Shown piece after piece: positions 1,889 through 13,996 of a stretch of DNA of 64,000 nt. A program made the position numbers and the translations under genes. The stretch is from an uncultured Lentimicrobiaceae bacterium (lineage in GTDB: Bacteria > Bacteroidota > Bacteroidia > Bacteroidales > F082). Below the pieces are notes generated by a model. That model did not search any database. It was not told the origin of the DNA and was given only the letters and a program-made list of their open reading frames with translations. Location: positions 2,770-66,769 of the forward strand of contig CAYNVN010000121.1 of NCBI GenBank assembly GCA_964400655.1. Direction: 5' to 3'. The number at the start of each line of letters is the position of its first letter. Position 1 is the stretch's first letter.

Positions 1889-2818
1889 TTAAATTAGTTT
1901 TATAAAGCGTTGTATTTTATTGTTTACAAACGGGTTTAACGATAGTTTTTCAAAAACAACAATTACAACAAGAGCTACTGTTACTCCCAAACCGATATCT
2001 ACAAGGTAGTGGTGTCCTGAATAAACTGCCGAAAACCAAATACCAAGCATAAAGACCGCAAAAAACCAATTCATAATTTTTAAACCTTTTTTTATGCCAT
2101 AATAAAGTACAATAACCGGATAAGCGGCATGTAATGAGGGTATGGCAGCAAGCACATTGGCATTTTTGTTGTAAATGGATTGAAAAACCGGAATACCGGT
2201 AATGGCATCAAAACGGGCAAGTCCGGCACTGTTTCCAGGAACGCCCAAATGCAAATCAAAACCATAAAGTTTAACATACCACGGCGGTGCTGCAGGATAG
2301 ATATAATAAATAACAAACCCGACAAGATTAACCAAAAGAAAAACCAGCGAGAACTTTGTAAACAGATATTTATCTTTAAAATACAGATAAACGGCAAAGG
2401 CCAGCGGTATGGGCACCCAGTTAATATAAAACAATCCGGCCAGTATATCTAAAAACGGTTTACTATGGATATTAAAATACTCGTTGGGCGTGAGTATATG
2501 GCCGGTTTCGTTAATTCCGAACAGCAATTTTTCCAGTTCATAGGGTTGTTTTATATGCACCTGCGACACCTGGTAATTGGGTATTACCCGCATTGAATCA
2601 TATACAATCCAATAGATGATAAATATTGAAAATGCCAAAATAAACCTGCGTGTTTTTTCGGTAAAATAATATCCCGTAAGCCAAATTAAAACAAGATAAT
2701 AGTATTCGGCTCTTATTCCTCCGGTAAAATAACTCCACAACAAACAGGCAAACACAACAATGGCGTTAAGTGTAATGTTTTTATTTGTAAACCTTATGAA
2801 CTCTGTATTTTCAGCCAT
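1889..2818 (-). CDS. PAP2-superfamily membrane protein, Aur1/inositol-phosphorylceramide-synthase-like
   Basis: Polytopic membrane protein carrying IPSLHAAYP and YSGHHYLVDIGLG. These match the PSxH and HYxxD motifs of the Aur1/sphingomyelin-synthase-like PAP2 branch. It is the last gene of the inositol-lipid operon, and its ATG overlaps the upstream stop (TAATG). Confidence 0.7.
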   Translation of the reverse strand: MAENTEFIRFTNKNITLNAIVVFACLLWSYFTGGIRAEYYYLVLIWLTGYYFTEKTRRFILAFSIFIIYWIVYDSMRVIPNYQVSQVHIKQPYELEKLLFGINETGHILTPNEYFNIHSKPFLDILAGLFYINWVPIPLAFAVYLYFKDKYLFTKFSLVFLLVNLVGFVIYYIYPAAPPWYVKLYGFDLHLGVPGNSAGLARFDAITGIPVFQSIYNKNANVLAAIPSLHAAYPVIVLYYGIKKGLKIMNWFFAVFMLGIWFSAVYSGHHYLVDIGLGVTVALVVIVVFEKLSLNPFVNNKIQRFIKLI

Positions 2819-3354
2819 TACTTAAAATATAATTTTTCGTACACCTTATTATTGGTTTTTATGTCGTTACCAAACAATTCCACATATAAAACTTTTGGCC
2901 AGAAACCCGATTCGTCGGCATAAATATACAGATGATCAAGTTTTGAAAGACTATTGTTAATATTGGCATAAACCACCGCTTTAAATGGTGCTTCCTGACT
3001 AAGCCAAAAGGAGTGTTCTTCATCAGCCACAAGTTTTACCCTGTAATATTTTTCTTTATCTTTTACCTTTTCGCATTTAACCCCGTATGCATACCATTTT
3101 TCGATGGTACGTAATTCCATTTTTTGTCCCTGTTCTTCGTATCGTATCCAGTAAACATTGATGGGGTTCTCTTTGTTCAAATTTCCGTTATCATCAAAAT
3201 TTGCATCGTAAACAATGGTATTTTTGTTATGATTACGCTGGATATAAAAAAGCAATTTATCATTTTTTAACGGCACGGGATAACGGTCGTCATCCACACT
3301 CTTAAACGACATCGTAACAAACAGCAGCAATATTATGGGAGCAACTCTCTTCAT
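2818..3354 (-). CDS. Small secreted protein of unknown function (DUF4833-like, from memory)
   Basis: Signal peptide MKRVAPIILLLFVTMSF. About 178 aa, with no catalytic motif recognised. The DUF4833 assignment is recollection only. Confidence 0.5.
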   Translation of the reverse strand: MKRVAPIILLLFVTMSFKSVDDDRYPVPLKNDKLLFYIQRNHNKNTIVYDANFDDNGNLNKENPINVYWIRYEEQGQKMELRTIEKWYAYGVKCEKVKDKEKYYRVKLVADEEHSFWLSQEAPFKAVVYANINNSLSKLDHLYIYADESGFWPKVLYVELFGNDIKTNNKVYEKLYFK

Positions 3355-3355
3355 A

Positions 3356-4363
3356 TTACAACATGTTTTTATTTTTATACCATGTTAAAGTTTCGGTAAG
3401 CCCTTTTATTAAATCATATTCGGGATAAAAACCAAAATCGTTTACCAGCGGAGTGCTGTCGCACAACCAGTTTTTACAACTTATCTCTTTATATTTTTCG
3501 GTATTTAGCGTAGGCGGCACTTTGGTAATACAGGCAATTTTTTCGGTTAAAAAGGCTACAATTTTAACAATGGTGCGGGGAAAAATAATACGAATGGTTT
3601 TTTTTCTTAAAACTTTTTTAATGATAGTATTAAACTCCGTAGCCGTATAGTAATTAAGGTCGGAAACAAAGTACGACTTTCCGGCAACCGGGGATTCCAG
3701 CGCATCAAAAATCAATCTAACCAAATCTTTAACATAAATAAATGTTAGATGCTGCCGGGTTGTACCAATATAGGTTTCAACACCCTGTTTGATGTTTTTA
3801 TAAACGAGATAAAAATCTTTTTCGCGATATCCGTAAGCGCCCGTAGGTCTGAAGATTAGAAAAGGAAAACCGGACAATGATTTAATATACCGTTCGGCCT
3901 TTAGTTTGCTTTCGCCATACAAGGTAACCGGATGAGGGGTATCGGAATCCGATACCGGTTTTAAGGTTTCTTCGTCTCCCGGGCCATAAGCCGCCAAACT
4001 GCTCATAAAAACAAATTTTCCCGACAGCGAAGCTGTTTCCGTTAAAGCTTCTATCAGGTTTTTGGTGTATTGAAAATTTACTTTGTCAAAATCGCTTTTT
4101 ACACACGATTTTGTAATTCCGGCATTATGAATAACAAAGTCGAACTTTCCGAATGTTTTTTGATGTGTTGTAAACTTCTCAGCCAAAAGGGCTTTATCGG
4201 AAAGTTCCGTTTCGATAAAGTTAATACGGGGATCGGATAAATAGGTTCTGTTGCTGGAACTTCTCACCGCAGCAAAAACACGATAGTTTCGTTTCAAAGC
4301 CTCCTCCACAAGAAAGCTGCCGATAAAACCGCTGGCACCTGTTATTAAAATATTTTTCATCAT
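3356..4363 (-). CDS. NAD(P)-dependent epimerase/dehydratase-family (extended SDR) protein
   Basis: N-terminal Rossmann motif ITGASGFIGS and catalytic YGESK (YxxxK). Confidence 0.85.
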   Translation of the reverse strand: MMKNILITGASGFIGSFLVEEALKRNYRVFAAVRSSSNRTYLSDPRINFIETELSDKALLAEKFTTHQKTFGKFDFVIHNAGITKSCVKSDFDKVNFQYTKNLIEALTETASLSGKFVFMSSLAAYGPGDEETLKPVSDSDTPHPVTLYGESKLKAERYIKSLSGFPFLIFRPTGAYGYREKDFYLVYKNIKQGVETYIGTTRQHLTFIYVKDLVRLIFDALESPVAGKSYFVSDLNYYTATEFNTIIKKVLRKKTIRIIFPRTIVKIVAFLTEKIACITKVPPTLNTEKYKEISCKNWLCDSTPLVNDFGFYPEYDLIKGLTETLTWYKNKNML

Positions 4364-4365
4364 TC

Positions 4366-6915
4366 TTAAAAATCCATTTTAAACCTGGCTCTTATTCCGT
4401 ATTCAGCAACATTAGGATTATCTAAATAGGTAACCCGTTTAACAACATCGACCCTGAAAAATTTAAGAATATTGCCAATACCTGCACTAACTTCAATATA
4501 GGGTTTGTCTTTTAAGGTAAATGTAGTCGGGTTGCCGTAACTATCAGTCGGAAATTTCATTACTCCGGGTGTAACATCGGGGTTGTTTTGGTCGCTTACG
4601 CTGCCGTAAAGTCCTTTAAACGACACAATGGCTCTCCACTTTAACCTTTTAAACAACGGAATTTTATTAAAAATAAAGCCGTTAAAATGATGTTCGATAA
4701 AAAGGCTTGCATACTGATCACTTACAAATTCCAGAAAGTTCATCATATTGTAAGAGCGAATTTGGTACGAATAGGTTTGGTTGGCACGAGGTATTGCAAG
4801 TAACGGGAAGGGTACCTGTCCGAAAACTTTTCCGGCTTCAATTTCCGTATTGGTAAATCCTATTGGTGAAAGATAAAAACGTTTAAAGGCATTAAAAGTA
4901 AGTTTACTATAGGTATAATCTGAATTAAACACCCCTTCAAAACCCTGTGTATAGGATATTTGAAAGATGGGATATTTTGTAATAATGGGAACTCTGAAAT
5001 CCATTCCCTGATAAAACTTTTCGTTGGGTGCAAAACGTAAACGGGTAATAATTTCGCTGGTAACAATCTGGTTAATCGAATAATCATCGTAGTTAAAATA
5101 TAACGTTCCTCCGGGTTCCTGTTTCATATTTTTAAAGATGAGTGTGGTAGAAAACCCGTTTTTCCAATCTTTATAATGTTTAAGTTCAAACATTTCGTAG
5201 TAAAGTATTTTATCTGAAACTCCCCTTTTAAACGAAAGTAAAAAATTATCTTCATTTATAAACTGCATCTCCATACCGGGGAAATTGGTTTCAACCTGAT
5301 ACATGGCAGAAAAATAGTGTTTCGGATTTTCTTTTAACGGTTTTTTATTAAGCGACCATGTGCCTTTTAATGAATATTTAAATCTTTCATCTTTAAACCC
5401 GTACATCAGATAGCCCTCAAGTCTTAATCGTTTACTGAATTTCTCGCTGGTTCGTCCTCCAGCTCTTAAGCGAAATCCTTCCACATCATTAAAACTATAA
5501 AAAGTATTAACCGGTCCAACATCAACTTTTCCGAAATTCCAATAGCCTGCAACCAGCAGCATAACAATATCCATTGTTCGTTTAAATGCCGGCACATGTT
5601 GAACGCTGTCAACCATCGAGTAAATATTTTTTTCTTTATCCGAAAGGTCAACCAACCGGTTTTTACCCCAGAAAGCGGTATCACGTTCATTATATCCGGG
5701 TTCGCGAATTATATTTTCAACACCTCTGTAAACGGTATCGGGTCGTTTTTTATTAAACAGATAATTATCGTAATAAACCGTTTTTCTTCCGAACATTCCG
5801 ATACCTTTTTTACCAAGATTAAAATCAACCACAAGATTATCTCTGGTAAGCATCCAGCATTGGTTATTGATGTAAGAATACTCCTGAACGATTTTAAGGT
5901 CGTTAACAAAATTCAAATTAATGTCATCGGTTATTCTCATATCGGCTTTAATAACCGCATATCTTTTATCATTGGTAATGTATAAGTTACCAACAAAGGC
6001 AAAGTCCTGCCTGTTTCGAGGCTGAAAAGCAAGATTAATACAGCTATAGCCGTTAACATCAACCGTATCTAGAATAAAAAATTTGTAAATAACCGGAGAA
6101 ATAGTTGACAAAGGGCTGACAAACGGATTGGTTAACAGCGTAATATTATTATCGTAAATATCGATATCCTGATACATATTGTCAATCATAAAGCTGATTC
6201 CCTCATTATCAAGATAGTCGTGAAAGCCGATCATTTTAGTTCCGGAAACGTATTCTTTTTCACTTTTCGGGTTTTTACGATAATACTTTTTTGAGACTGT
6301 TTCTTTTAAGAATACCGGAAGGTACGGTTTGCCGTTTATTTTGGAAGTATCTACATAATTAAAAACAAATTGTAGTTTTTTAAATACCTTTTTACTTTTA
6401 AATTTTTCGGTAATATTATTCAGGTCAAACTCAACCTTTTCATACTTATTGTATTCGTAATAATCCAGACTTTCTTTACGGTTTAGGTTTTTGTTTTTAA
6501 TAACTTTTTTAATAAGGTCAACCGCAGGGTTTCCTTTGTTTCTATATCGTTTCTTTTTAGTTGATATAACCACTTCATTTAAATCGATACTTTTTGATTT
6601 CAGTTCAAAATTTACAACCTGATTTTTTTCCGGTATTATTTTTTTAGTCTGACTATTGTAACCCAAAAATGATGCCTGCAGCGAATCGGATGCCCATAAT
6701 GTTTCAATACTGTATTTTCCGTTATAGTCGGTTGTAGTGCCTATATTTTTTCCCACAAAAACAATATTTACAAAAGGTAAAGGCTCTTTGGTTCCTGCAT
6801 CAATCACCGTACCTCTTACACGGGTCATTTTTTGGGCACGGCTCTCTTTTGCCGGTATAACCGCCAATAAAGAAGCAATTAAAACGATATATATTATTTG
6901 TTTAATCCTCACCAC
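4366..6915 (-). CDS. Outer-membrane protein with an N-terminal carboxypeptidase-regulatory-like domain and a large DUF5686-like beta-rich region
   Basis: GTG start and signal peptide ...LIASLLAVIPAKESRAQ. VRGTVIDAGTKEPLPFVNIVFVGKNIGTTTDYNGKYSI is a typical CarboxypepD_reg fold signature. The C-terminal end, ...GIRARFKMDF, looks like a beta-barrel terminus. The DUF5686 name is from memory. Confidence 0.65.
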   Translation of the reverse strand: MVRIKQIIYIVLIASLLAVIPAKESRAQKMTRVRGTVIDAGTKEPLPFVNIVFVGKNIGTTTDYNGKYSIETLWASDSLQASFLGYNSQTKKIIPEKNQVVNFELKSKSIDLNEVVISTKKKRYRNKGNPAVDLIKKVIKNKNLNRKESLDYYEYNKYEKVEFDLNNITEKFKSKKVFKKLQFVFNYVDTSKINGKPYLPVFLKETVSKKYYRKNPKSEKEYVSGTKMIGFHDYLDNEGISFMIDNMYQDIDIYDNNITLLTNPFVSPLSTISPVIYKFFILDTVDVNGYSCINLAFQPRNRQDFAFVGNLYITNDKRYAVIKADMRITDDINLNFVNDLKIVQEYSYINNQCWMLTRDNLVVDFNLGKKGIGMFGRKTVYYDNYLFNKKRPDTVYRGVENIIREPGYNERDTAFWGKNRLVDLSDKEKNIYSMVDSVQHVPAFKRTMDIVMLLVAGYWNFGKVDVGPVNTFYSFNDVEGFRLRAGGRTSEKFSKRLRLEGYLMYGFKDERFKYSLKGTWSLNKKPLKENPKHYFSAMYQVETNFPGMEMQFINEDNFLLSFKRGVSDKILYYEMFELKHYKDWKNGFSTTLIFKNMKQEPGGTLYFNYDDYSINQIVTSEIITRLRFAPNEKFYQGMDFRVPIITKYPIFQISYTQGFEGVFNSDYTYSKLTFNAFKRFYLSPIGFTNTEIEAGKVFGQVPFPLLAIPRANQTYSYQIRSYNMMNFLEFVSDQYASLFIEHHFNGFIFNKIPLFKRLKWRAIVSFKGLYGSVSDQNNPDVTPGVMKFPTDSYGNPTTFTLKDKPYIEVSAGIGNILKFFRVDVVKRVTYLDNPNVAEYGIRARFKMDF

Positions 6916-6921
6916 TAATCC

Positions 6922-7317
6922 TTATTTAAAAACAAAATATTTATGTGTTAAAAAGTTAAACCCGATACCCACAATAATTGCAACTATTATTTTAGAGATA
7001 ATATACCGGCAGTTAAAAAATTCAACCAGCAAATAAAGGCCTGCGGTATTTAAAAAAATACTGACAGACCAAACCAATATGTATTTAAATGACTGGGCGG
7101 AAACCTTCCCGCCGGTTTTCATAAAAGTCCAGTTTCGTTCCATAACAAACGCGGTTATTCCTCCTGAAACCGCACCGATAACGGCCGAAAGGAGATACCA
7201 GATTTCCAGGGCCTCCGTAAAAAGAATAAATACGGCAAAATCAACCGATGTAGCAACAATAGCCACAACATTGTATCTGAAAAATGAAGTTAGTGTTTTC
7301 GGTTTTGTATTCACCAC
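6922..7317 (-). CDS. GtrA-family small membrane protein
   Basis: 131 aa with four predicted TM segments. FFRYNVVAIVATSVDFAVF and the C-terminal FNFLTHKYFVFK are typical of GtrA-like proteins. The GTG start directly follows the pgpA stop. Confidence 0.75.
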   Translation of the reverse strand: MVNTKPKTLTSFFRYNVVAIVATSVDFAVFILFTEALEIWYLLSAVIGAVSGGITAFVMERNWTFMKTGGKVSAQSFKYILVWSVSIFLNTAGLYLLVEFFNCRYIISKIIVAIIVGIGFNFLTHKYFVFK

Positions 7318-7794
7318 TTATAAAATTTCAAGATACATTACCAATTGCAAAACAGCAGCTGCATAAACTCCCGCCAACACATCATCCAGCATAACACTCC
7401 AGTCGGATTTAAGGTTATCGAGTTTTTTAATGCCAAAGGGTTTTACAATATCAAATATTCTAAACAAAATAAGGGCGTAGAGGTAGTACTGCCATTTAAG
7501 CGGAATGGCAACGGCCGCAATGCCCACTCCCACAATTTCATCAATAACAATTTTAGGCGAATCGTGTTCCCATATCCGGTGAACCTTTTTAATGGCATAA
7601 ACACCCCACAGCAACAAAATAATAACAGCAAAAAGATTAAGAACCGAAACACCTGTTTTTCCTACTCCCAAATGGTTCAGCAAAAGGTTTAACCCGTAAA
7701 AAAAGGTTATTCCAAGTACCGAACCTGCCGTACCCGGTGCAACAGGTGCATATCCTGTTCCTAATCCCGATGCTATTATTTTTGCTGTTTTCAT
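7318..7794 (-). CDS. pgpA: PgpA-type phosphatidylglycerophosphatase A family protein (probable phosphatidylinositol-phosphate phosphatase in this context)
   Basis: GLGTGYAPVAPGTAGSVLG, DEIVGV and RIFDIVKPFGIKKLD motifs of PgpA. Its start abuts the MIPS stop (7794/7795). Confidence 0.85.
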   Translation of the reverse strand: MKTAKIIASGLGTGYAPVAPGTAGSVLGITFFYGLNLLLNHLGVGKTGVSVLNLFAVIILLLWGVYAIKKVHRIWEHDSPKIVIDEIVGVGIAAVAIPLKWQYYLYALILFRIFDIVKPFGIKKLDNLKSDWSVMLDDVLAGVYAAAVLQLVMYLEIL

Positions 7795-9114
7795 TTACTC
7801 CTCTTCGTAATAATCAAGACCAAGGTGGTTAATCAGGGTTTCTCCCATCATATAGCGCAAAGTATTTTCAAATTTTATTTTTTGAAGGAAAATATCATGG
7901 ATGGGTTCCAGCCCTTTTTTGGTTTGCGGCGATTTAAAATAAAACGACAACCACTCCTGAATGCCTTTATATCCTGCTCGTTGAGCAAGGTCCATAAATA
8001 AAACCAAATCCAAAACTACCGGAGCGGCAAGAATGGAATCTTTACATAAGAAATTAACTTTGATTTGCATTTTATAATTGAGCCAGCCGAAAATATCGAT
8101 GTTATCCCAGCTCTCCTTATCGTCTCCCTTGGGAGGATAGTAATTAATCCTTACTTTATGATACATATCTTTATAAAGTTCAGGATACTTATCGGGCTCC
8201 AAAATACTGTCTAAAACACTTAATTTGGAAACCTCTTTGGTTTTAAACGAATCAACATCGTCAAGCACCTCGCCATCTCTGTTGCCCAGAATATTTGTTG
8301 AGAACCAGCCGTCAATACCAATTAAACGCGATTTTAACCCCGGTCCCAAAATGGTTTTCATCAGCGTTTGGCCTGTTTTAAAGTCCTTACCAGCAATGGG
8401 AATATTAAGTTTATTAGCCATATCAATTAAAGCGGGAATATCAACTGTAAGGTTAGGTGCACCGTTAACAAACGGAACCCCGCTTTTTAATGCGGCATAA
8501 GCATAAATCATGCTGGGTGAAATGGAAGGATGATTTTCTTTTAAACCTTTTTCAAAATTTTCTATTGTTTGATGAACTTCGGTTTCCCGGGTATAAACTT
8601 CGGTGGAAGCACACCAAATCATAACCATCCTGCTACAATTATTGGCCGATTTAAAATATTCGATATCCTCCATTACTTCCAGGGCCAATTCCATTTTGGT
8701 ATTTTCTATTTTCACATTCTCGCCATGTATGTTTTTAACATATGCCGAATCGAAAACTGCCGGCATCGGTTCAATGGCACTCAGCTCATCTTTTACAGAG
8801 TCAAGCAAATCTTTATCTAAAACTCCTGCGTTTAAAGCAGCCTCATAAGCATTTTCTTTAAAAATATCCCAACCTCCGAAAACCAGATTCTCAACAGGTG
8901 CAAGAGGAACAAAGTCGTTTATTGCAGGATTTCTGTTTTCGGTCCGTTTTCCAAGTCTGATTTTTCCCATCTGCGAAATAGACCCAACAGGTTTGCCAAT
9001 TCCTTTTTTGGTGGCAAAAACTCCTGCCATAAAAGTGGTGGATACCGCACCGATACCCGGAATAAGAACACCCAGCTTACCGTCGGGGGCTTTAATGCTG
9101 TTTTGTGATTTCAT
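7795..9114 (-). CDS. ino1: myo-inositol-1-phosphate synthase
   Basis: 439 aa with an N-terminal NAD-binding GVLIPGIGAVSTTFMAG. The central SPSMIYAYAALKSGVPFVNGAPN block is characteristic of the MIPS family. Confidence 0.9.
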   Translation of the reverse strand: MKSQNSIKAPDGKLGVLIPGIGAVSTTFMAGVFATKKGIGKPVGSISQMGKIRLGKRTENRNPAINDFVPLAPVENLVFGGWDIFKENAYEAALNAGVLDKDLLDSVKDELSAIEPMPAVFDSAYVKNIHGENVKIENTKMELALEVMEDIEYFKSANNCSRMVMIWCASTEVYTRETEVHQTIENFEKGLKENHPSISPSMIYAYAALKSGVPFVNGAPNLTVDIPALIDMANKLNIPIAGKDFKTGQTLMKTILGPGLKSRLIGIDGWFSTNILGNRDGEVLDDVDSFKTKEVSKLSVLDSILEPDKYPELYKDMYHKVRINYYPPKGDDKESWDNIDIFGWLNYKMQIKVNFLCKDSILAAPVVLDLVLFMDLAQRAGYKGIQEWLSFYFKSPQTKKGLEPIHDIFLQKIKFENTLRYMMGETLINHLGLDYYEEE

Positions 9115-9151
9115 TTTTATTAAATTTAATAATTACTATATATCTTAACCT

Positions 9152-9838
9152 CTACATTTTATCGTAACAATGATGCAATCGCTGAAAAGCGGTATAGTTT
9201 GTTAATACAGCCATAATAAATATGGGAAATGTAAAAACCGATATGTTTTCAAAAAGCGGAAAAGGCAAAAAATCAACCGAAAACTTAAAATTGCCAAAAA
9301 CCATCGACACAATACCATACAATATTGCGGTAATACCAATGGTAAGCACTCTTTCAGGCCGCTGCATCATACCTACTTTACACTCCACACCCAATCCTTC
9401 AGCCCGGGCTCTTACATAACTTACCATAATGGAACCTATCATGGCAATAAAAGCGAATACGGAACTTAAAAGATAATCGTAACTAACAAGGTAATAAGCA
9501 ATACCAAAAAACATAACCATTTCGCTGTACCGGTCTAATACCGAATCGTATAAAGCACCGAATTTGGTTGTTTTTCCGGTTCGGCGGGCAAGCTGACCGT
9601 CAAGCATATCAAATAGTCCTGCAAATAAAGTAACAGCCCCAAACCACATTATATAATGGTAATTTCCTCTCTCACCCGCTTCGGCACCGTAAACAAGAAC
9701 GGCAGCCGAAATCATAGTAATAAATAAACCAATTGTTGTAATCCCGTTGGGTGTTACACCGGTTTTAATTAACACACCGATAAACGGATCAAGTAATTTA
9801 TATGCCCTTATTTTGATTTTTTCCCAGTTAAATTCCAT
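9152..9838 (-). CDS. CDP-alcohol phosphatidyltransferase (probable phosphatidylinositol-phosphate synthase)
   Basis: Complete DGx2ARx8Gx3Dx3D motif in DMLDGQLARRTGKTTKFGALYDSVLD. Polytopic membrane protein and first gene of the operon. Confidence 0.9.
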   Translation of the reverse strand: MEFNWEKIKIRAYKLLDPFIGVLIKTGVTPNGITTIGLFITMISAAVLVYGAEAGERGNYHYIMWFGAVTLFAGLFDMLDGQLARRTGKTTKFGALYDSVLDRYSEMVMFFGIAYYLVSYDYLLSSVFAFIAMIGSIMVSYVRARAEGLGVECKVGMMQRPERVLTIGITAILYGIVSMVFGNFKFSVDFLPFPLFENISVFTFPIFIMAVLTNYTAFQRLHHCYDKM

Positions 9839-9859
9839 TTTTAATATATAATTATATAT

Positions 9860-9879
9860 GTTAGTTTATATTTACTAAC
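9860..9879. promoter_or_regulatory. Operator-like palindrome, copy 3 (GTTAGTTTATATTTACTAAC), in the 5' leader of the inositol-lipid operon
   Basis: Shares the GTTAGT...ACTAAC arms with the other two copies. Lies 21 nt upstream of the ATG at 9838. Confidence 0.55.
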
Positions 9880-9960
9880 CTGTACTATAAAAAAACATTT
9901 ATCACAAACCTTCATTAGCCATTTTACCAATAATAAAGATAAATTGAAAAAATGATTTTG

Positions 9961-9984
9961 CAAAGTTAGTTAATATAAACTAAC
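9961..9984. promoter_or_regulatory. Operator-like palindrome, copy 2 (GTTAGTTAATATAAACTAAC, 9965-9984), overlapping a minus-strand TAACTTTG -7 box (9961-9968)
   Basis: The reverse complement of 9961-9968 is TAACTTTG, which fits the Bacteroidota TAnnTTTG -7 consensus. It is oriented toward the operon starting at 9838. Confidence 0.6.
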
Positions 9985-10286
9985 TTCCTAATTATTTTTA
10001 TTGTTTTTTTGCATTATTAAAACCCTGGATTTTGAAATAACTTTTTTTATAACCTGTAATACTTTGATTTAACCGGCTTTATTTAATGTCAAACATCTAA
10101 TACTGCTACATATTGTATAAATATTCCTTAAATCATCCCTTTTAATAAATCGTATTTTTTTACCAACCGGTCAGCTTTAAAAAAAACATTTAATAAAACA
10201 ATCGACATTATTTTTAAAATAATATTTGGTTATAAAGGCACCAACCCGTTTATTAAAATAAAAAAAAATTAAGAAAATGCTTGGAT

Positions 10287-10310
10287 GTTAGTTAATATTA
10301 ACTAACTTTG
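10287..10310. promoter_or_regulatory. Operator palindrome, copy 1 (perfect 20-mer GTTAGTTAATATTAACTAAC, 10287-10306), overlapping a plus-strand TAACTTTG -7 box (10303-10310)
   Basis: Perfect self-complementary 20-mer. The -7 box lies about 40 nt upstream of the TetR ATG (10351). Confidence 0.65.
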
Positions 10311-10350
10311 TCGCGGATTTCGATCGTAAAAGTAAAATAAATTTATTGTA

Positions 10351-10929
10351 ATGCAAACAGAAAGACAAACACAAATAATGGAGTCGGCACTTGAGCTTAT
10401 TGCCGAAAAAGGTATTCAGGGATTAACCATTAAAAATTTATCGAAAAAAATTGGCATTTCGGAACCGGCCATATATCGCCACTTTGAAAACAAAAGCAGC
10501 ATCTTACTTACCATTCTGGATAACTTTAAACAGATGGCTGCCATGTTATCGGCCATAATACCCACTGTTGGAGAAACCGCATTTGATAAAATTTCATTTA
10601 TCTTTTCAAAGATTACCCAACTTTTTATTGAGTCGCCATCTTATGTATCGGTAATTTTTTCGGAAGAGATTTTTAAAAACGATTTACAACTAAAAAATAA
10701 AATTACCGAAGTTCTTGACCAAAACGAGCAAACCATCGAGAACATCATTATTACCGGCCAGGAAAACGGCGATATACGAACAGACATCAGCAGCAAAAAT
10801 TTAGCACTTATTGTTATGGGTTCGTTACGATTTCTTGTTAAACAATGGGATATCAAGGAACGCCGGAAAAACCTTAAACAAGAAGGCGATCAACTGTTAA
10901 ACAGTTTAAAACTCATTATTAAAAAATAA
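10351..10929 (+). CDS. TetR/AcrR-family transcriptional regulator
   Basis: N-terminal HTH: IMESALELIAEKGIQGLTIKNLSKKIGISEPAIYRHFENK. 192 aa. Confidence 0.9.
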   Translation: MQTERQTQIMESALELIAEKGIQGLTIKNLSKKIGISEPAIYRHFENKSSILLTILDNFKQMAAMLSAIIPTVGETAFDKISFIFSKITQLFIESPSYVSVIFSEEIFKNDLQLKNKITEVLDQNEQTIENIIITGQENGDIRTDISSKNLALIVMGSLRFLVKQWDIKERRKNLKQEGDQLLNSLKLIIKK

Positions 10930-11101
10930 AATACCGAAAGAACAAAAGTTTACATGAACAAAAGCGGTGTAGTGATGAAATAAACGGATTAAACATTAAG
11001 CACAACAGAAAGATTTGAAGCATTACAATCCCAAAAATGTGCGATATAATTGATGTTATTATTGGGATGCAGGAAGATTTCCGGATCATAAAATAACTGT
11101 T

Positions 11102-11917
11102 ATGAAAATAAAAATCAATATATTGTTATTATTCGGCTTACTGCTTTTCACTTCTTGCAACGAAGTATTTGACTACTCACCTTATGTTATTGATTTTGAC
11201 GACGAAAACAGAGATGTTAACAAAACCAATATAGCCAAATTATTATTAAAAAAAGCACCTGACACCATACACATTGCATTTACGGGAGACTCGCACAGGT
11301 TTTATGACGAACTGGAAGATTTTGTTGACAAAGTAAACGAAGTAAACCAAACAAGCCCTTTTGATTTTGTAATTCATGTTGGAGATATTGCCGACTTCGG
11401 TTTACCAAAACAGTATTTGTGGGGCAACTCCTCTTTACTAAACCTTGACATACCCTATTTTGTTCTTTTGGGAAATCACGATATGGTTGGAAATGGCGGA
11501 CAGGCTTACACCGAAATGTTTGGCGACTACAACTTCAGCTTTATTTACGGCAAAATAAAGTTTGTTTTTTTAAACACAAACAGCCGCGAATTTAAATTCA
11601 ACGGTAAAGTACCCGATTTAAACTGGCTTGATAATGAGCTAAAACCCGCCGATGATTTCAGTTATGCCGTAGTTATTTTCCATGTGCCTCCCACGGATGC
11701 TGATTTTGACCCTGATTTAACAGAAGCTTTCCATCAAACGCTGGCAAAGTATAACAATGTGCTGTTTGGAGTGCACGGCCATTTACACCATTTCAATGTT
11801 TACAAACCTTTTCCCGACAGCATTACCTATGTTAATGTTTACGGTGTAGAACACCGGAAATTCACAGTCATTGACATTAGCGGCCATCACTTTAATATTA
11901 AGGAGTATGCGTTTTAA
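11102..11917 (+). CDS. Calcineurin-like metallophosphoesterase lipoprotein
   Basis: Lipobox LLFTSC. Phosphoesterase motif series GDSH, GDIADFG, GNHD, FHVPP and GHLHH. Confidence 0.85.
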   Translation: MKIKINILLLFGLLLFTSCNEVFDYSPYVIDFDDENRDVNKTNIAKLLLKKAPDTIHIAFTGDSHRFYDELEDFVDKVNEVNQTSPFDFVIHVGDIADFGLPKQYLWGNSSLLNLDIPYFVLLGNHDMVGNGGQAYTEMFGDYNFSFIYGKIKFVFLNTNSREFKFNGKVPDLNWLDNELKPADDFSYAVVIFHVPPTDADFDPDLTEAFHQTLAKYNNVLFGVHGHLHHFNVYKPFPDSITYVNVYGVEHRKFTVIDISGHHFNIKEYAF

Positions 11918-12518
11918 AATACTAATTATATTAATTTTTATGGCGGGAACCCCATCAGTGGCGCAACACGCTGAAGCTTCTCCAAAAGCCGATACTTCGG
12001 TTTGGGTTAAGTTTATCCCCGATTATGTTAAACTGCAATATGCCGGAGGAATAGGCTTTTTATCGGCAGGAGTTGGCTACACCTTTTTCAAACAAAACCT
12101 CGATATCTCACTGTTTTACGGTTATGTTCCAAAGTGGTTTACCACCGACGACCTGCACAGCATCAGTTTGCAGTTTACGGCAAAACTGTTCAGAATTAAA
12201 GCATCCGATAACATTGAAATTCTTCCTTTAAACATAGGATGGTATTTACATCATACTTTTGGTAACGAATATTGGGTAAAACTACCTAACAACTATCCTA
12301 AAGGTTACTATTGGTGGTCGCCCGGAAGAAATGCAGGAGTATTTTTGGGTGGTGAAATAAAAACAAAACTGCTGGCCAATAAATCGCCGGCATCGGGGCT
12401 GGCTTTTTATGTAAGGGCAGGTACCCGGGGGCTTTACTTAGCCAGTAAAGCGGGAAACAAATCGTTACCGATTACCGACATTATAGAGCTTGGATTTGGC
12501 GTTGCCTTGTACCGATAA
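11907..12518 (+). CDS. Secreted hypothetical protein, probably a small outer-membrane beta-barrel
   Basis: I chose the ATG at 11907 because it gives signal peptide MRFKILIILIFMAGTPSVAQ. Alternating aromatic/Gly-rich strands and a C-terminal ...GFGVALYR. Overlaps the upstream stop by 11 nt. Confidence 0.5.
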   Translation: MRFKILIILIFMAGTPSVAQHAEASPKADTSVWVKFIPDYVKLQYAGGIGFLSAGVGYTFFKQNLDISLFYGYVPKWFTTDDLHSISLQFTAKLFRIKASDNIEILPLNIGWYLHHTFGNEYWVKLPNNYPKGYYWWSPGRNAGVFLGGEIKTKLLANKSPASGLAFYVRAGTRGLYLASKAGNKSLPITDIIELGFGVALYR

Positions 12519-12528
12519 TATTTTAAAA

Positions 12529-13422
12529 ATGAAAAACATACTTATAATACTTCTTACGGGGATTTTGATTTTGGCAAAATGTCAGGCTCAAAACAAAAAG
12601 GTTCCCGAAATACGCTTAACTACCATAGCACAGGTTAACCAGGGAAACAGTTACATAACGGCACCCATAGATATTGGCAATATAGAGCCATTATGGTTTG
12701 AAGCAAATATTATTCCCGGATTTCATATACGTCAAAATAAAGATTCGAGATTAATGGGCGTTTTAACACCCCAAATCATCATCAGAATGTATCAGGAAAA
12801 GTCGGCTCCGGTACGTACCCCCAGTTATATCCCACAAATTACGGTATATTATAAACTCAAATCAAAAACCGAAGCAAACAGTCTTAGTGTTTTCGGTAAA
12901 ATAGCACACCACTCAAACGGCCAGGACGGAGAATATTTGTTGGAAAACGGAGAGGTTAATCTAAAAACCGGCGACTTTTCAACCAATTACATTGAGATGG
13001 GCATTATTGTAACCAACTTCAACAAAAAACTTAATGCGGTACAGTTTTTCGGAACCTCTTTTGAACTTCATCCCGAAAGCCTGACAAATAATACCATGAT
13101 CGGCTCATACGGGCTGTATCGCTGGAACTCCATCTTTTCAATATTTAAGTTGCCTGACGGTGCCGGCAACAAACAAAAAAAACGGGCTAAAATATCGCTG
13201 AAAGGCGAAACAACCTGGATGTTCGGCAAACTTTACGACTGGAACTGGTACTCATTGAACCGGTTAAATTTAAGTTTTACATTTTACTATCATCCGCGTT
13301 TTTTAGAAGAGATAGGCCTGTTTGTAAATATTTACCACGGAATGGATTATTACAACATCTATTTCAACCATCAGATCAGCGTTATTCGTTTTGGAATAAT
13401 GACTGAAATATTGCAGTTCTAA
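12529..13422 (+). CDS. Outer-membrane phospholipase A (OMPLA/PldA)-like protein
   Basis: Start chosen at MKNILIILLTGILILAKCQAQ. IAHHSNGQDG matches the HxSNG catalytic motif of OMPLA, and a downstream DFSTNY is a possible catalytic Asn region. Size is about right for PldA. Confidence 0.6.
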   Translation: MKNILIILLTGILILAKCQAQNKKVPEIRLTTIAQVNQGNSYITAPIDIGNIEPLWFEANIIPGFHIRQNKDSRLMGVLTPQIIIRMYQEKSAPVRTPSYIPQITVYYKLKSKTEANSLSVFGKIAHHSNGQDGEYLLENGEVNLKTGDFSTNYIEMGIIVTNFNKKLNAVQFFGTSFELHPESLTNNTMIGSYGLYRWNSIFSIFKLPDGAGNKQKKRAKISLKGETTWMFGKLYDWNWYSLNRLNLSFTFYYHPRFLEEIGLFVNIYHGMDYYNIYFNHQISVIRFGIMTEILQF

Positions 13423-13573
13423 ACAAAATTTTTAAAGCAACGCCACTATTTATTACCAACAAATTATGTAAATATACCATAACAACAATTTACAGCAATA
13501 TCAAATAATATTTGCTTTAACACGTTATCGTAATTCATATTTACACAAATTAAAAATCAAAACCTTTAAATAA

Positions 13574-13996
13574 ATGATTAAAAACGTTTTATTAATTGTG
13601 CTTTTCCTTACCACAACTACAGGATTTTCACAACAAGCCAACGACATTATTGGAAAGTACAGGCTGCCAAACAAACTGGACATTGAAATATTTAAAGTTA
13701 ACAATGAATATTTCGGGAAAATTATCGCATTAAACGGTTATGAAAACGGTCAAACGGTTGACCTGAAAAACCCTGACAAGTCGAAACGGAATAATCCGTT
13801 GGTGGGTATGGTCATTATTAAAAACCTAAAATACGATGAAAAAGAAGGCAAATGGATTGACGGTGAAATGTACGGCCCTGAAAAAGGTATGGTTTTTAAC
13901 CTGAAAATAACAGAAATAAAAAACAACAAAGCTACTGCCGTCGGGTCGAAATACTTTTTCCGGCACACCCTGCAATGGGAAAAATTAGATTCTTAA
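13574..13996 (+). CDS. DUF2147-like small secreted protein
   Basis: Signal peptide followed by IIGKY...GKII...NPDKSKRNNPLVGMVIIKNLKYDEKEGKWIDGEMYGPEKG, a pattern typical of DUF2147. Confidence 0.65.
   Translation: MIKNVLLIVLFLTTTTGFSQQANDIIGKYRLPNKLDIEIFKVNNEYFGKIIALNGYENGQTVDLKNPDKSKRNNPLVGMVIIKNLKYDEKEGKWIDGEMYGPEKGMVFNLKITEIKNNKATAVGSKYFFRHTLQWEKLDS

Follow-up and report, generated by a model that had tools for sequence, protein, structure and literature searches.

The inositol lipids and inositol sphingolipids of Bacteroidota received their biochemical characterisation as late as 2022, and their native regulator is undescribed. In the stretch of DNA analysed here, which we call the window (64,000 nucleotides from an uncultured Lentimicrobiaceae bacterium), a predicted inositol-lipid operon lies divergently from the gene of a TetR-type regulator, and the spacer between them holds three related palindromes of 20 bp. 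Are these palindromes operators of the neighbouring TetR protein? And is inositol-lipid synthesis what this protein family controls? The original prediction, made from the letters of the window, proposed a dimeric TetR that occludes two opposed promoters and is dedicated to inositol lipids.

The locus and its three palindromes

Pfam searches return the gene identities that had been proposed for the two sides of the spacer, an inositol-lipid operon on the minus strand and a TetR gene on the plus strand. The operon begins with PIPS (a CDP-alcohol phosphatidyltransferase of the PIP-synthase type) and MIPS (myo-inositol-1-phosphate synthase), followed by PgpA, GtrA, a DUF5686/CarboxypepD_reg protein, an NAD-dependent epimerase/reductase, DUF4833 and PAP2_3. 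By predicted function it has the content of a Bacteroides-type cluster: PF07994/PF01658 (MIPS), PF01066, PF04608 (PgpA) and PF14378 (PAP2). The Bacteroides inositol-lipid genes were defined by Heaver et al. 2022 (PMC9246714), with the Bacteroides thetaiotaomicron cluster BT_1522-BT_1526. The features of the locus are as follows.

1889..9838, minus strand: inositol-(sphingo)lipid operon, eight genes (Pfam; enzyme activities predicted)
9860-9879, no strand: O3, GTTAGTTTATATTTACTAAC, 25.7 bits (PWM)
9961..9968, minus strand: -7 box of the predicted inositol-lipid operon promoter, TAACTTTG
9965-9984, no strand: O2, GTTAGTTAATATAAACTAAC, 27.5 bits (PWM), overlapping the inositol-operon -7 box
10281..10283, plus strand: -33-like TTG of the predicted tetR promoter, 19 nt upstream of the TA of the -7 box
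10287-10306, no strand: O1, GTTAGTTAATATTAACTAAC, 32.1 bits (PWM), inside the predicted tetR promoter
10303..10310, plus strand: -7 box of the predicted tetR promoter, TAACTTTG, its first four bases being the outer half-site of O1
10351..10929, plus strand: tetR, 192 aa, TetR_N and a YsiA/FadR-like TetR_C_4 (Pfam)

The spacer measures 512 bp (9839-10350), as claimed, and has a GC content of 22%. Its small ORFs (20-40 aa) are low-complexity and AT-rich. Re-reading the sequence confirmed all three sites, in letters and in position, and also the perfect self-complementarity of O1. The centres of O2 and O3 are 105 bp apart (10.0 helical turns), O1 and O2 are separated by 322 bp, and O3 ends 21 nt before the ATG (9838) of the first minus-strand gene, as described before. 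The public sequencing runs that contain this stretch are three DNA metagenome runs and 0 RNA runs.

The three sites are far more than chance would supply. With up to two mismatches, the degenerate pattern GTTAGTNNATATNNACTAAC has three matches in the 64 kb, namely O1, O2 and O3, while shuffled sequences lead us to expect 0.02. We also trained a PWM on 30 sites from other species, leaving out the window and identical copies. Besides O1-O3, no position in the 64-kb window reaches 8 bits. Random sequence from a first-order Markov model with the composition of the spacer (22% GC), 2 Mb in all, reached 14.9 bits at most. Altogether, the motif was counted in the window, in 779 kb of tetR-centred loci and in 544 kb of PIPS-centred loci.

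Promoters of the Bacteroidota primary sigma factor (sigma-ABfr) have the consensus TTTG at about -33 and TAnnTTTG at -7 (PMC7366714), which agrees with the -7 consensus on which the original prediction relied. The whole spacer contains exactly two TAnnTTTG, one per strand, and they are built by O1 and O2: each consists of the outer TAAC of the palindrome and the flanking TTTG. On the plus strand, TAACTTTG lies at 10303-10310, 40 nt before the tetR ATG (10351). At 9961-9968, CAAAGTTA is TAACTTTG read on the minus strand, the sole minus-strand TAnnTTTG of the spacer. Both boxes are where they had been claimed to be. Near -33, where a TTTG-like element would be expected about 19-21 nt ahead of the -7 box, the tetR promoter has cTTG at a distance of 19 nt and the inositol promoter has TTAG, not TTTG.

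The TetR protein combines TetR_N (PF00440, E=6.5e-13, residues 9-53) with the C-terminal ligand-binding or dimerisation domain TetR_C_4 (PF08359, E=2e-8). The closest solved structure is FadR/YsiA of Bacillus subtilis (3whb/1vi0, E about 1e-14; 3whb over residues 5-181). The best NCBIfam match is likewise FadR (NF053878), with 64.9 bits against an equivalog cut-off of 200. Since this score is far under the cut-off, the protein is not a FadR ortholog. Nevertheless, a ligand domain of the YsiA/FadR type and a nearest structure that is an acyl-CoA sensor make it plausible that the effector is a lipid-type ligand, for example acyl-CoA or a lipid intermediate. The protein has more than 3,400 relatives. 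Its helix-turn-helix, GIQGLTIKNLSKxIGISEPAIYRHF, hardly varies across the family, if at all.

The palindrome upstream of tetR in related species

We compared 80 tetR-centred loci taken from named genomes (MAGs of Lentimicrobiaceae, Prolixibacteraceae, Marinilabiliaceae and further Bacteroidales, for the most part from sediments and vents), supplemented by a few loci from exact look-up. All in all, over 150 related loci enter the comparison. We counted as operator A any site that scores 13 bits or more and lies no further than 130 nt upstream of tetR.

Operator A is present in 71 of the 78 non-redundant loci, where the TetR proteins are only 53-93% identical. Its flanks are conserved too. Among 72 unique contexts, positions -7 to -4 read T58 T62 T52 G42 and positions +21 to +24 read T53 T67 T64 G55; TTTG directly follows the palindrome on the 3' side in 48 of the 72. 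The arrangement of O1, TTG-N3-palindrome-TTTG, is kept with the same position and flanks in 71/78 loci. Because TTTG flanks the palindrome on both sides, the palindrome spans the 19-nt gap between -33 and -7 and contributes the TA to the -7 box. These counts support the view that the motif travels with the tetR gene.

In about 80 related species the same sites stand before tetR, before a lipid-exporter operon and before inositol-lipid operons. An alignment (MAFFT) of the spacers of the window and of loci L096 and L007 mis-registered O2, where the spacing differs, and was used solely to show how far the flanks have diverged: only the region of O1 aligns cleanly, and all three sites persist.

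Another class of site near tetR, TTTTGCGAG(C/T)GAATACTAACTAAC, is degenerate in its left half, lies only about 10 nt before the start codon and carries TTTT(G) at its left in place of TTTG at its right. It occurs in L015, L018, L036, L052, L060, L063-L065, L067, L069, L070, L074, L076-L078, L081 and L082. In this subclade the operator seems to lie downstream of the -7 box, not upstream of it.

An exporter operon as the most conserved predicted target

Behind tetR, translated searches (tblastn) reveal a conserved operon: tetR, (Cupin_2), MMPL/HAE3, DUF1329, (Metallophos, a 215-aa protein), a protein of about 300 aa, (DUF1302) and DUF2147, where brackets mark genes that are not always present. 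The MMPL/HAE3 transporter is 71-98% identical among the loci, and DUF1329 is LolA/TP_0789-like. In 53 of 60 loci, a second site, operator B, is found 7-20 nt ahead of the MMPL start codon. Lacking a TTTG flank, operator B is not of the promoter type but belongs to a leader or to an intercistronic stretch.

Sites in transcribed leaders raise the question of whether the palindromes act as RNA. A 20-bp palindrome can always form a hairpin, and both O3 and the MMPL-proximal sites lie in leaders, so attenuators or terminators would be conceivable; dispersed repeats of the REP or MITE type are the other non-operator explanation. If pairing in RNA were what is conserved, then changes in one arm should be compensated in the other. 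Among 42 unique leader-proximal sites, however, we count 124 one-sided departures from the palindrome, of which 95 break a pair, against 1 that is compensated. As the changes are one-sided and not compensatory, the conserved unit is the DNA half-site and not an RNA hairpin. Moreover, transcription is predicted to start only downstream of O1 and O2, the spacer has no Rfam match at E<=1, and the fold of the leader RNA is unremarkable against shuffles (z = -0.87). A dispersed repeat should recur, but neither the rest of the 64 kb nor the 409 kb of control loci (see below) contains a further copy. Hairpins or repeats therefore strike us as barely credible, and we continue with the palindromes as operators.

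The prevalence of operator B also bears on how specific the regulator is. The most conserved predicted target of the family is the MMPL/HAE3-DUF1329 exporter operon, and so the TetR is not dedicated to inositol lipids; this part of the original prediction has to be given up. From the sequences, we regard the protein as a member of a widespread Bacteroidales TetR family that would control, first of all, the operon in which its own gene lies, tetR-MMPL(HAE3)-DUF1329-outer-membrane-protein. Beyond this core regulon, the family would recurrently act on clusters for the synthesis of inositol lipids or other CDP-alcohol lipids, and in some cases on tripartite RND pumps.

Two variations on the operon were observed. 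A small Cupin_2 gene (112-131 aa) is often inserted between tetR and the MMPL-proximal operator (for example L016 8597-8935, L047 8582-8977, L088 8586-8924 and many others). In other loci an operator stands before RND pump operons of the form OEP (TolC-like)-MFP-AcrB, which adjoin tetR and either replace or join the MMPL operon (L046 2180; L019 8998; L035 8996; L056 8988).

Loss of the exporter genes from the locus in the window

The window itself carries the tail of this operon:

11102..13996, plus strand: Metallophos, 215-aa unknown, 310-aa unknown and DUF2147, the tail of the tetR-MMPL operon

These genes are probably co-transcribed with tetR, and their homologs follow MMPL-DUF1329 in L011, L014, L018, L036, L052, L064, L068 and L169. 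In the window, tetR is followed directly by Metallophos (junction 10930-11101); MMPL, DUF1329 and the MMPL-proximal operator are absent. The junction is identical in four independent assemblies, and L169, whose TetR is 93% identical, retains tetR-MMPL-DUF1329-Metallophos; the two genes also stand in this place throughout most of the family. Since the four assemblies agree and L169 is intact, the loss is recent and no assembly artefact. By this comparison, the absence of MMPL and DUF1329 at the window is a real recent deletion or relocation. A search of the 172-bp tetR-Metallophos junction for remnants of MMPL or operator B gave just chance matches of 8-15 nt.

Sites upstream of inositol-lipid genes

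A test of the inositol link needs loci that were not chosen for their tetR. We retrieved 80 metagenome loci with PIPS as the query, of which 15 have the PIPS-first gene order and reach at least 200 nt beyond PIPS on its upstream side. In nine of these 15, which represent about seven lineages, there are sites of 15-30 bits no more than 800 nt upstream of PIPS, for a chance expectation below 0.03. By comparison, 52 control loci with the architecture MIPS...DUF5686-PIPS (409 kb) contain no site of at least 13 bits anywhere. No site could be detected in the remaining 6 of the 15 PIPS-first relatives. Thus the link to inositol lipids is frequent and not universal.

The gene order of the inositol operon in the window recurs in L007, L010 and L091-L105. 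Four arrangements of sites precede PIPS. First, PIPS is divergent from tetR (window, L007/L010, L096). Second, PIPS lies on the same strand downstream of an MMPL operon, with a site 26 nt before the PIPS ATG (L076). Third, PIPS follows a second tetR paralog (L091, L101). Fourth, no tetR is in view (L089, L092, L099/L100). Promoter-type sites like O2, with TTTG facing PIPS, occur in L007/L010, L096, L089, L092, L093/L094 and L099/L100. Sites like O3 lie 26-60 nt before PIPS in L076, L091, L092 and L101; O3, which has no TTTG flank, is also of one type with the start-proximal operator before MMPL in relatives.

The third arrangement brings up a different candidate for the binding protein: O2 and O3 might be bound mainly by a second paralog, TetR2, encoded elsewhere, while the adjacent TetR would autoregulate through O1 only. 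Such a paralog, if this genome encodes one, could also share the two sites with the adjacent TetR. TetR2 proteins, 44-52% identical and equipped with the same recognition helix, are indeed encoded directly upstream of PIPS in L091 and L101. Both paralogs can even be carried by one contig: L091 and L020 are overlapping pieces of a contig with two tandem units, operator-tetR2-operator-inositol operon and operator-tetR1-operator-MMPL operon. In L076 and L007/L010, however, there is a single tetR in the locus and yet there are sites before PIPS, and TetR2 is absent from the 64-kb window. Furthermore, as the recognition helices are identical, both paralogs would bind anyway. We consider a main role of TetR2 at O2 and O3 unlikely, and retain the adjacent TetR as the candidate repressor for all three sites.

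Alternatively, O1 alone could be functional, with O2 and O3 as decaying relics and an inositol operon that is no longer controlled. The pair of O2 and O3 with nothing between them resembles the tetR2-PIPS unit of L091 and L101 minus its gene, and the recent deletion of MMPL and DUF1329 makes this locus one in which genes have been lost. Against decay, O2 and O3 score as high as bona fide promoter sites (27.5 and 25.7 bits), and sites of both types are kept in L007/L010/L096 despite spacers that have diverged beyond alignment. In addition, the only -7 box facing the inositol operon comes from O2. That the two sites are relics appears very unlikely to us, and we treat O2 and O3 as candidate operators alongside O1.

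Several neighbourhoods of PIPS hold further genes. In L007 (4665-5549) and L010 (6668-7549) a sulfotransferase gene (PF00685) heads the inositol-lipid operon, and the start-proximal operator overlaps the sulfotransferase ATG, which hints that this lineage may make sulfated lipid products. In L071 (1-7615) two operators (32.0 and 29.8 bits) head a seven-gene cluster directly upstream of tetR-MMPL: DUF6134, TauE/SafE, a cytidylyltransferase, an unknown protein, a NAD_binding_4 reductase, a CDP-alcohol phosphatidyltransferase and a DUF5686-like protein. The cluster has the look of a pathway to lipids with another head group, controlled by the same regulator.

In L093 (3395-3946) and L094 (3396-3947) an ORF of 183 aa separates a strong promoter-type operator from PIPS. 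Its product aligns with the TetR family but has no Pfam match, and its helix-turn-helix is decayed, with IGRKRLPKEI replacing ISEPAIYRHF; the product may be a TetR paralog that no longer binds DNA. Two loci in which no operator was detectable upstream of PIPS have distant paralogs of the MMPL-operon accessories immediately upstream of that gene. In L097 (937-3481) these are Omp85-like, Metallophos-like and unk215-like genes; in L105 (381-3948) they are unk310-like, DUF1329 and DUF1302 genes, joined by a truncated TetR_N gene. Because such paralogs adjoin PIPS, L097 and L105 form a further neighbourhood link between the MMPL and inositol gene sets.

A proposed model of the switch

We propose that O1-O3 are operators of the adjacent FadR/YsiA-like TetR repressor, which would repress both its own gene and the inositol-lipid operon. 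On the strength of the sequence comparisons we hold this to be very likely. The sequences, the statistics, the geometry and the persistence of the sites in other species and gene orders are observed; from them we infer that the adjacent TetR binds, that it represses, where transcription starts and what kind of ligand is sensed.

Each of the two promoters has its core overlapped by one of the operators O1 and O2, and a bound TetR dimer should therefore keep RNA polymerase away. At the tetR promoter, O1 lies between -33 and -7, and a bound dimer would block the housekeeping sigma factor (sigma-ABfr type). Occupancy of O1 would then shut off tetR together with the genes behind it, which amounts to autoregulation. 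A dimer on O2 would impose the same blockade on the opposed promoter of the eight-gene inositol-lipid operon. A lipid-type ligand would release the repressor. Assuming that transcription begins about 5-8 nt beyond each TTTG, the leaders would be about 36 nt long for tetR and about 118 nt for the inositol operon. The more than 150 related loci support the occlusion of both promoters by a dimeric TetR, with autoregulation and control of the inositol operon, as originally predicted.

O3 would fall at about +77 to +96 of the inositol-operon transcript. As a second, downstream operator in the predicted leader it could be a roadblock, or it could cooperate or form a loop with O2; the original prediction had named both roadblock and looping. 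O3 matches the start-proximal operator type before MMPL and is hence a conserved design element, so that its standing as an operator is upheld. Looping fares less well. The distances between the equivalents of O2 and O3 in other loci are 33, 101, 185-187 and about 640-700 bp, without constant phase, and looping is thus speculative.

Comparison with known regulators

The control logic is that of the classical TetR system, Tn10 tetR/tetA; what is new is the regulon, which is undescribed. As in Tn10 TetR/tetO (and the TetR family members QacR and AcrR), a TetR_N regulator is divergent from its target. Palindromic operators cover the core of both promoters, as in tetR-tetA, and autoregulation, target repression and release by ligand are expected. 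Unlike Tn10, the promoters of the window do not share a compact region but have separate operators 322 bp apart. There is also a third operator in the leader of the target, and the promoters are of the Bacteroidota -33/-7 type. Finally, the targets are lipid biosynthesis and lipid export, and not a drug pump.

The acyl-CoA-responsive FadR (YsiA) of Bacillus subtilis shares with the window protein the TetR_C_4 ligand domain and a regulon in lipid metabolism. FadR, however, controls fatty-acid degradation, binds another operator sequence and belongs to another phylum.

In mycobacteria, TetR-family regulators repress mmpL lipid-exporter genes and respond to lipids. Phylum and operator differ from those of the Bacteroidales system, which adds to the mycobacterial plan a LolA-like DUF1329, outer-membrane partners and an operator that is common to exporter and lipid-synthesis operons.

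For inositol-lipid formation itself, the literature on dedicated bacterial regulators yielded a single case, IpsA of Corynebacterium and Mycobacterium, which controls ino1 (MIPS) and hence the formation of inositol-derived lipids (PMC3899939). Like the window TetR, IpsA is a transcription factor for inositol-lipid formation. It is LacI-type and actinobacterial, with an unrelated fold, operator and logic. We found nothing comparable for Bacteroidota, and no description of a dedicated TetR for bacterial inositol-lipid synthesis, just as the original prediction had stated. In the work that defined the Bacteroides genes, TetR serves solely as an engineered induction tool and no native regulator is described (Heaver et al. 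2022, PMC9246714).

On the export side, a 2026 preprint treats the outward transport of sphingolipids in Bacteroidetes as an open question and points to an MmpL gene next to spt in Myxococcus (bioRxiv 10.64898/2026.04.12.717747). DUF1329/DUF1302/HAE3 clusters have been linked to the handling of hydrophobic compounds in Proteobacteria and are unstudied in Bacteroidota.

What the regulon may mean

Seen by itself, the locus would be a simple switch made of two promoters, one small repressor and an operator of 20 bp whose consensus is clear. Once the ligand is found, the repressor/operator pair could serve as an orthogonal, Bacteroidota-native part for inducible expression.

Of greater interest than the switch is the link that the operator draws between inositol-lipid synthesis and the highly conserved MMPL/HAE3-DUF1329 operon, which provides a concrete candidate for lipid export and a way to approach the signal that sets the lipid composition of the outer membrane. 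A speculative reading, towards which we remain more sceptical than convinced, is that the common operator defines an envelope-lipid regulon of environmental Bacteroidales, in which the MMPL/HAE3-DUF1329-OMP machine exports inositol or other CDP-alcohol lipids outward. The window genome calls for caution here: it has lost MMPL and DUF1329 at this locus and kept the lipid operon. Either another copy of MMPL/DUF1329 exists elsewhere, or the exporter is dispensable for inositol lipids. If the reading is true, then one lipid-sensing TetR family would couple the synthesis of inositol (sphingo)lipids to their missing route to the outer membrane.
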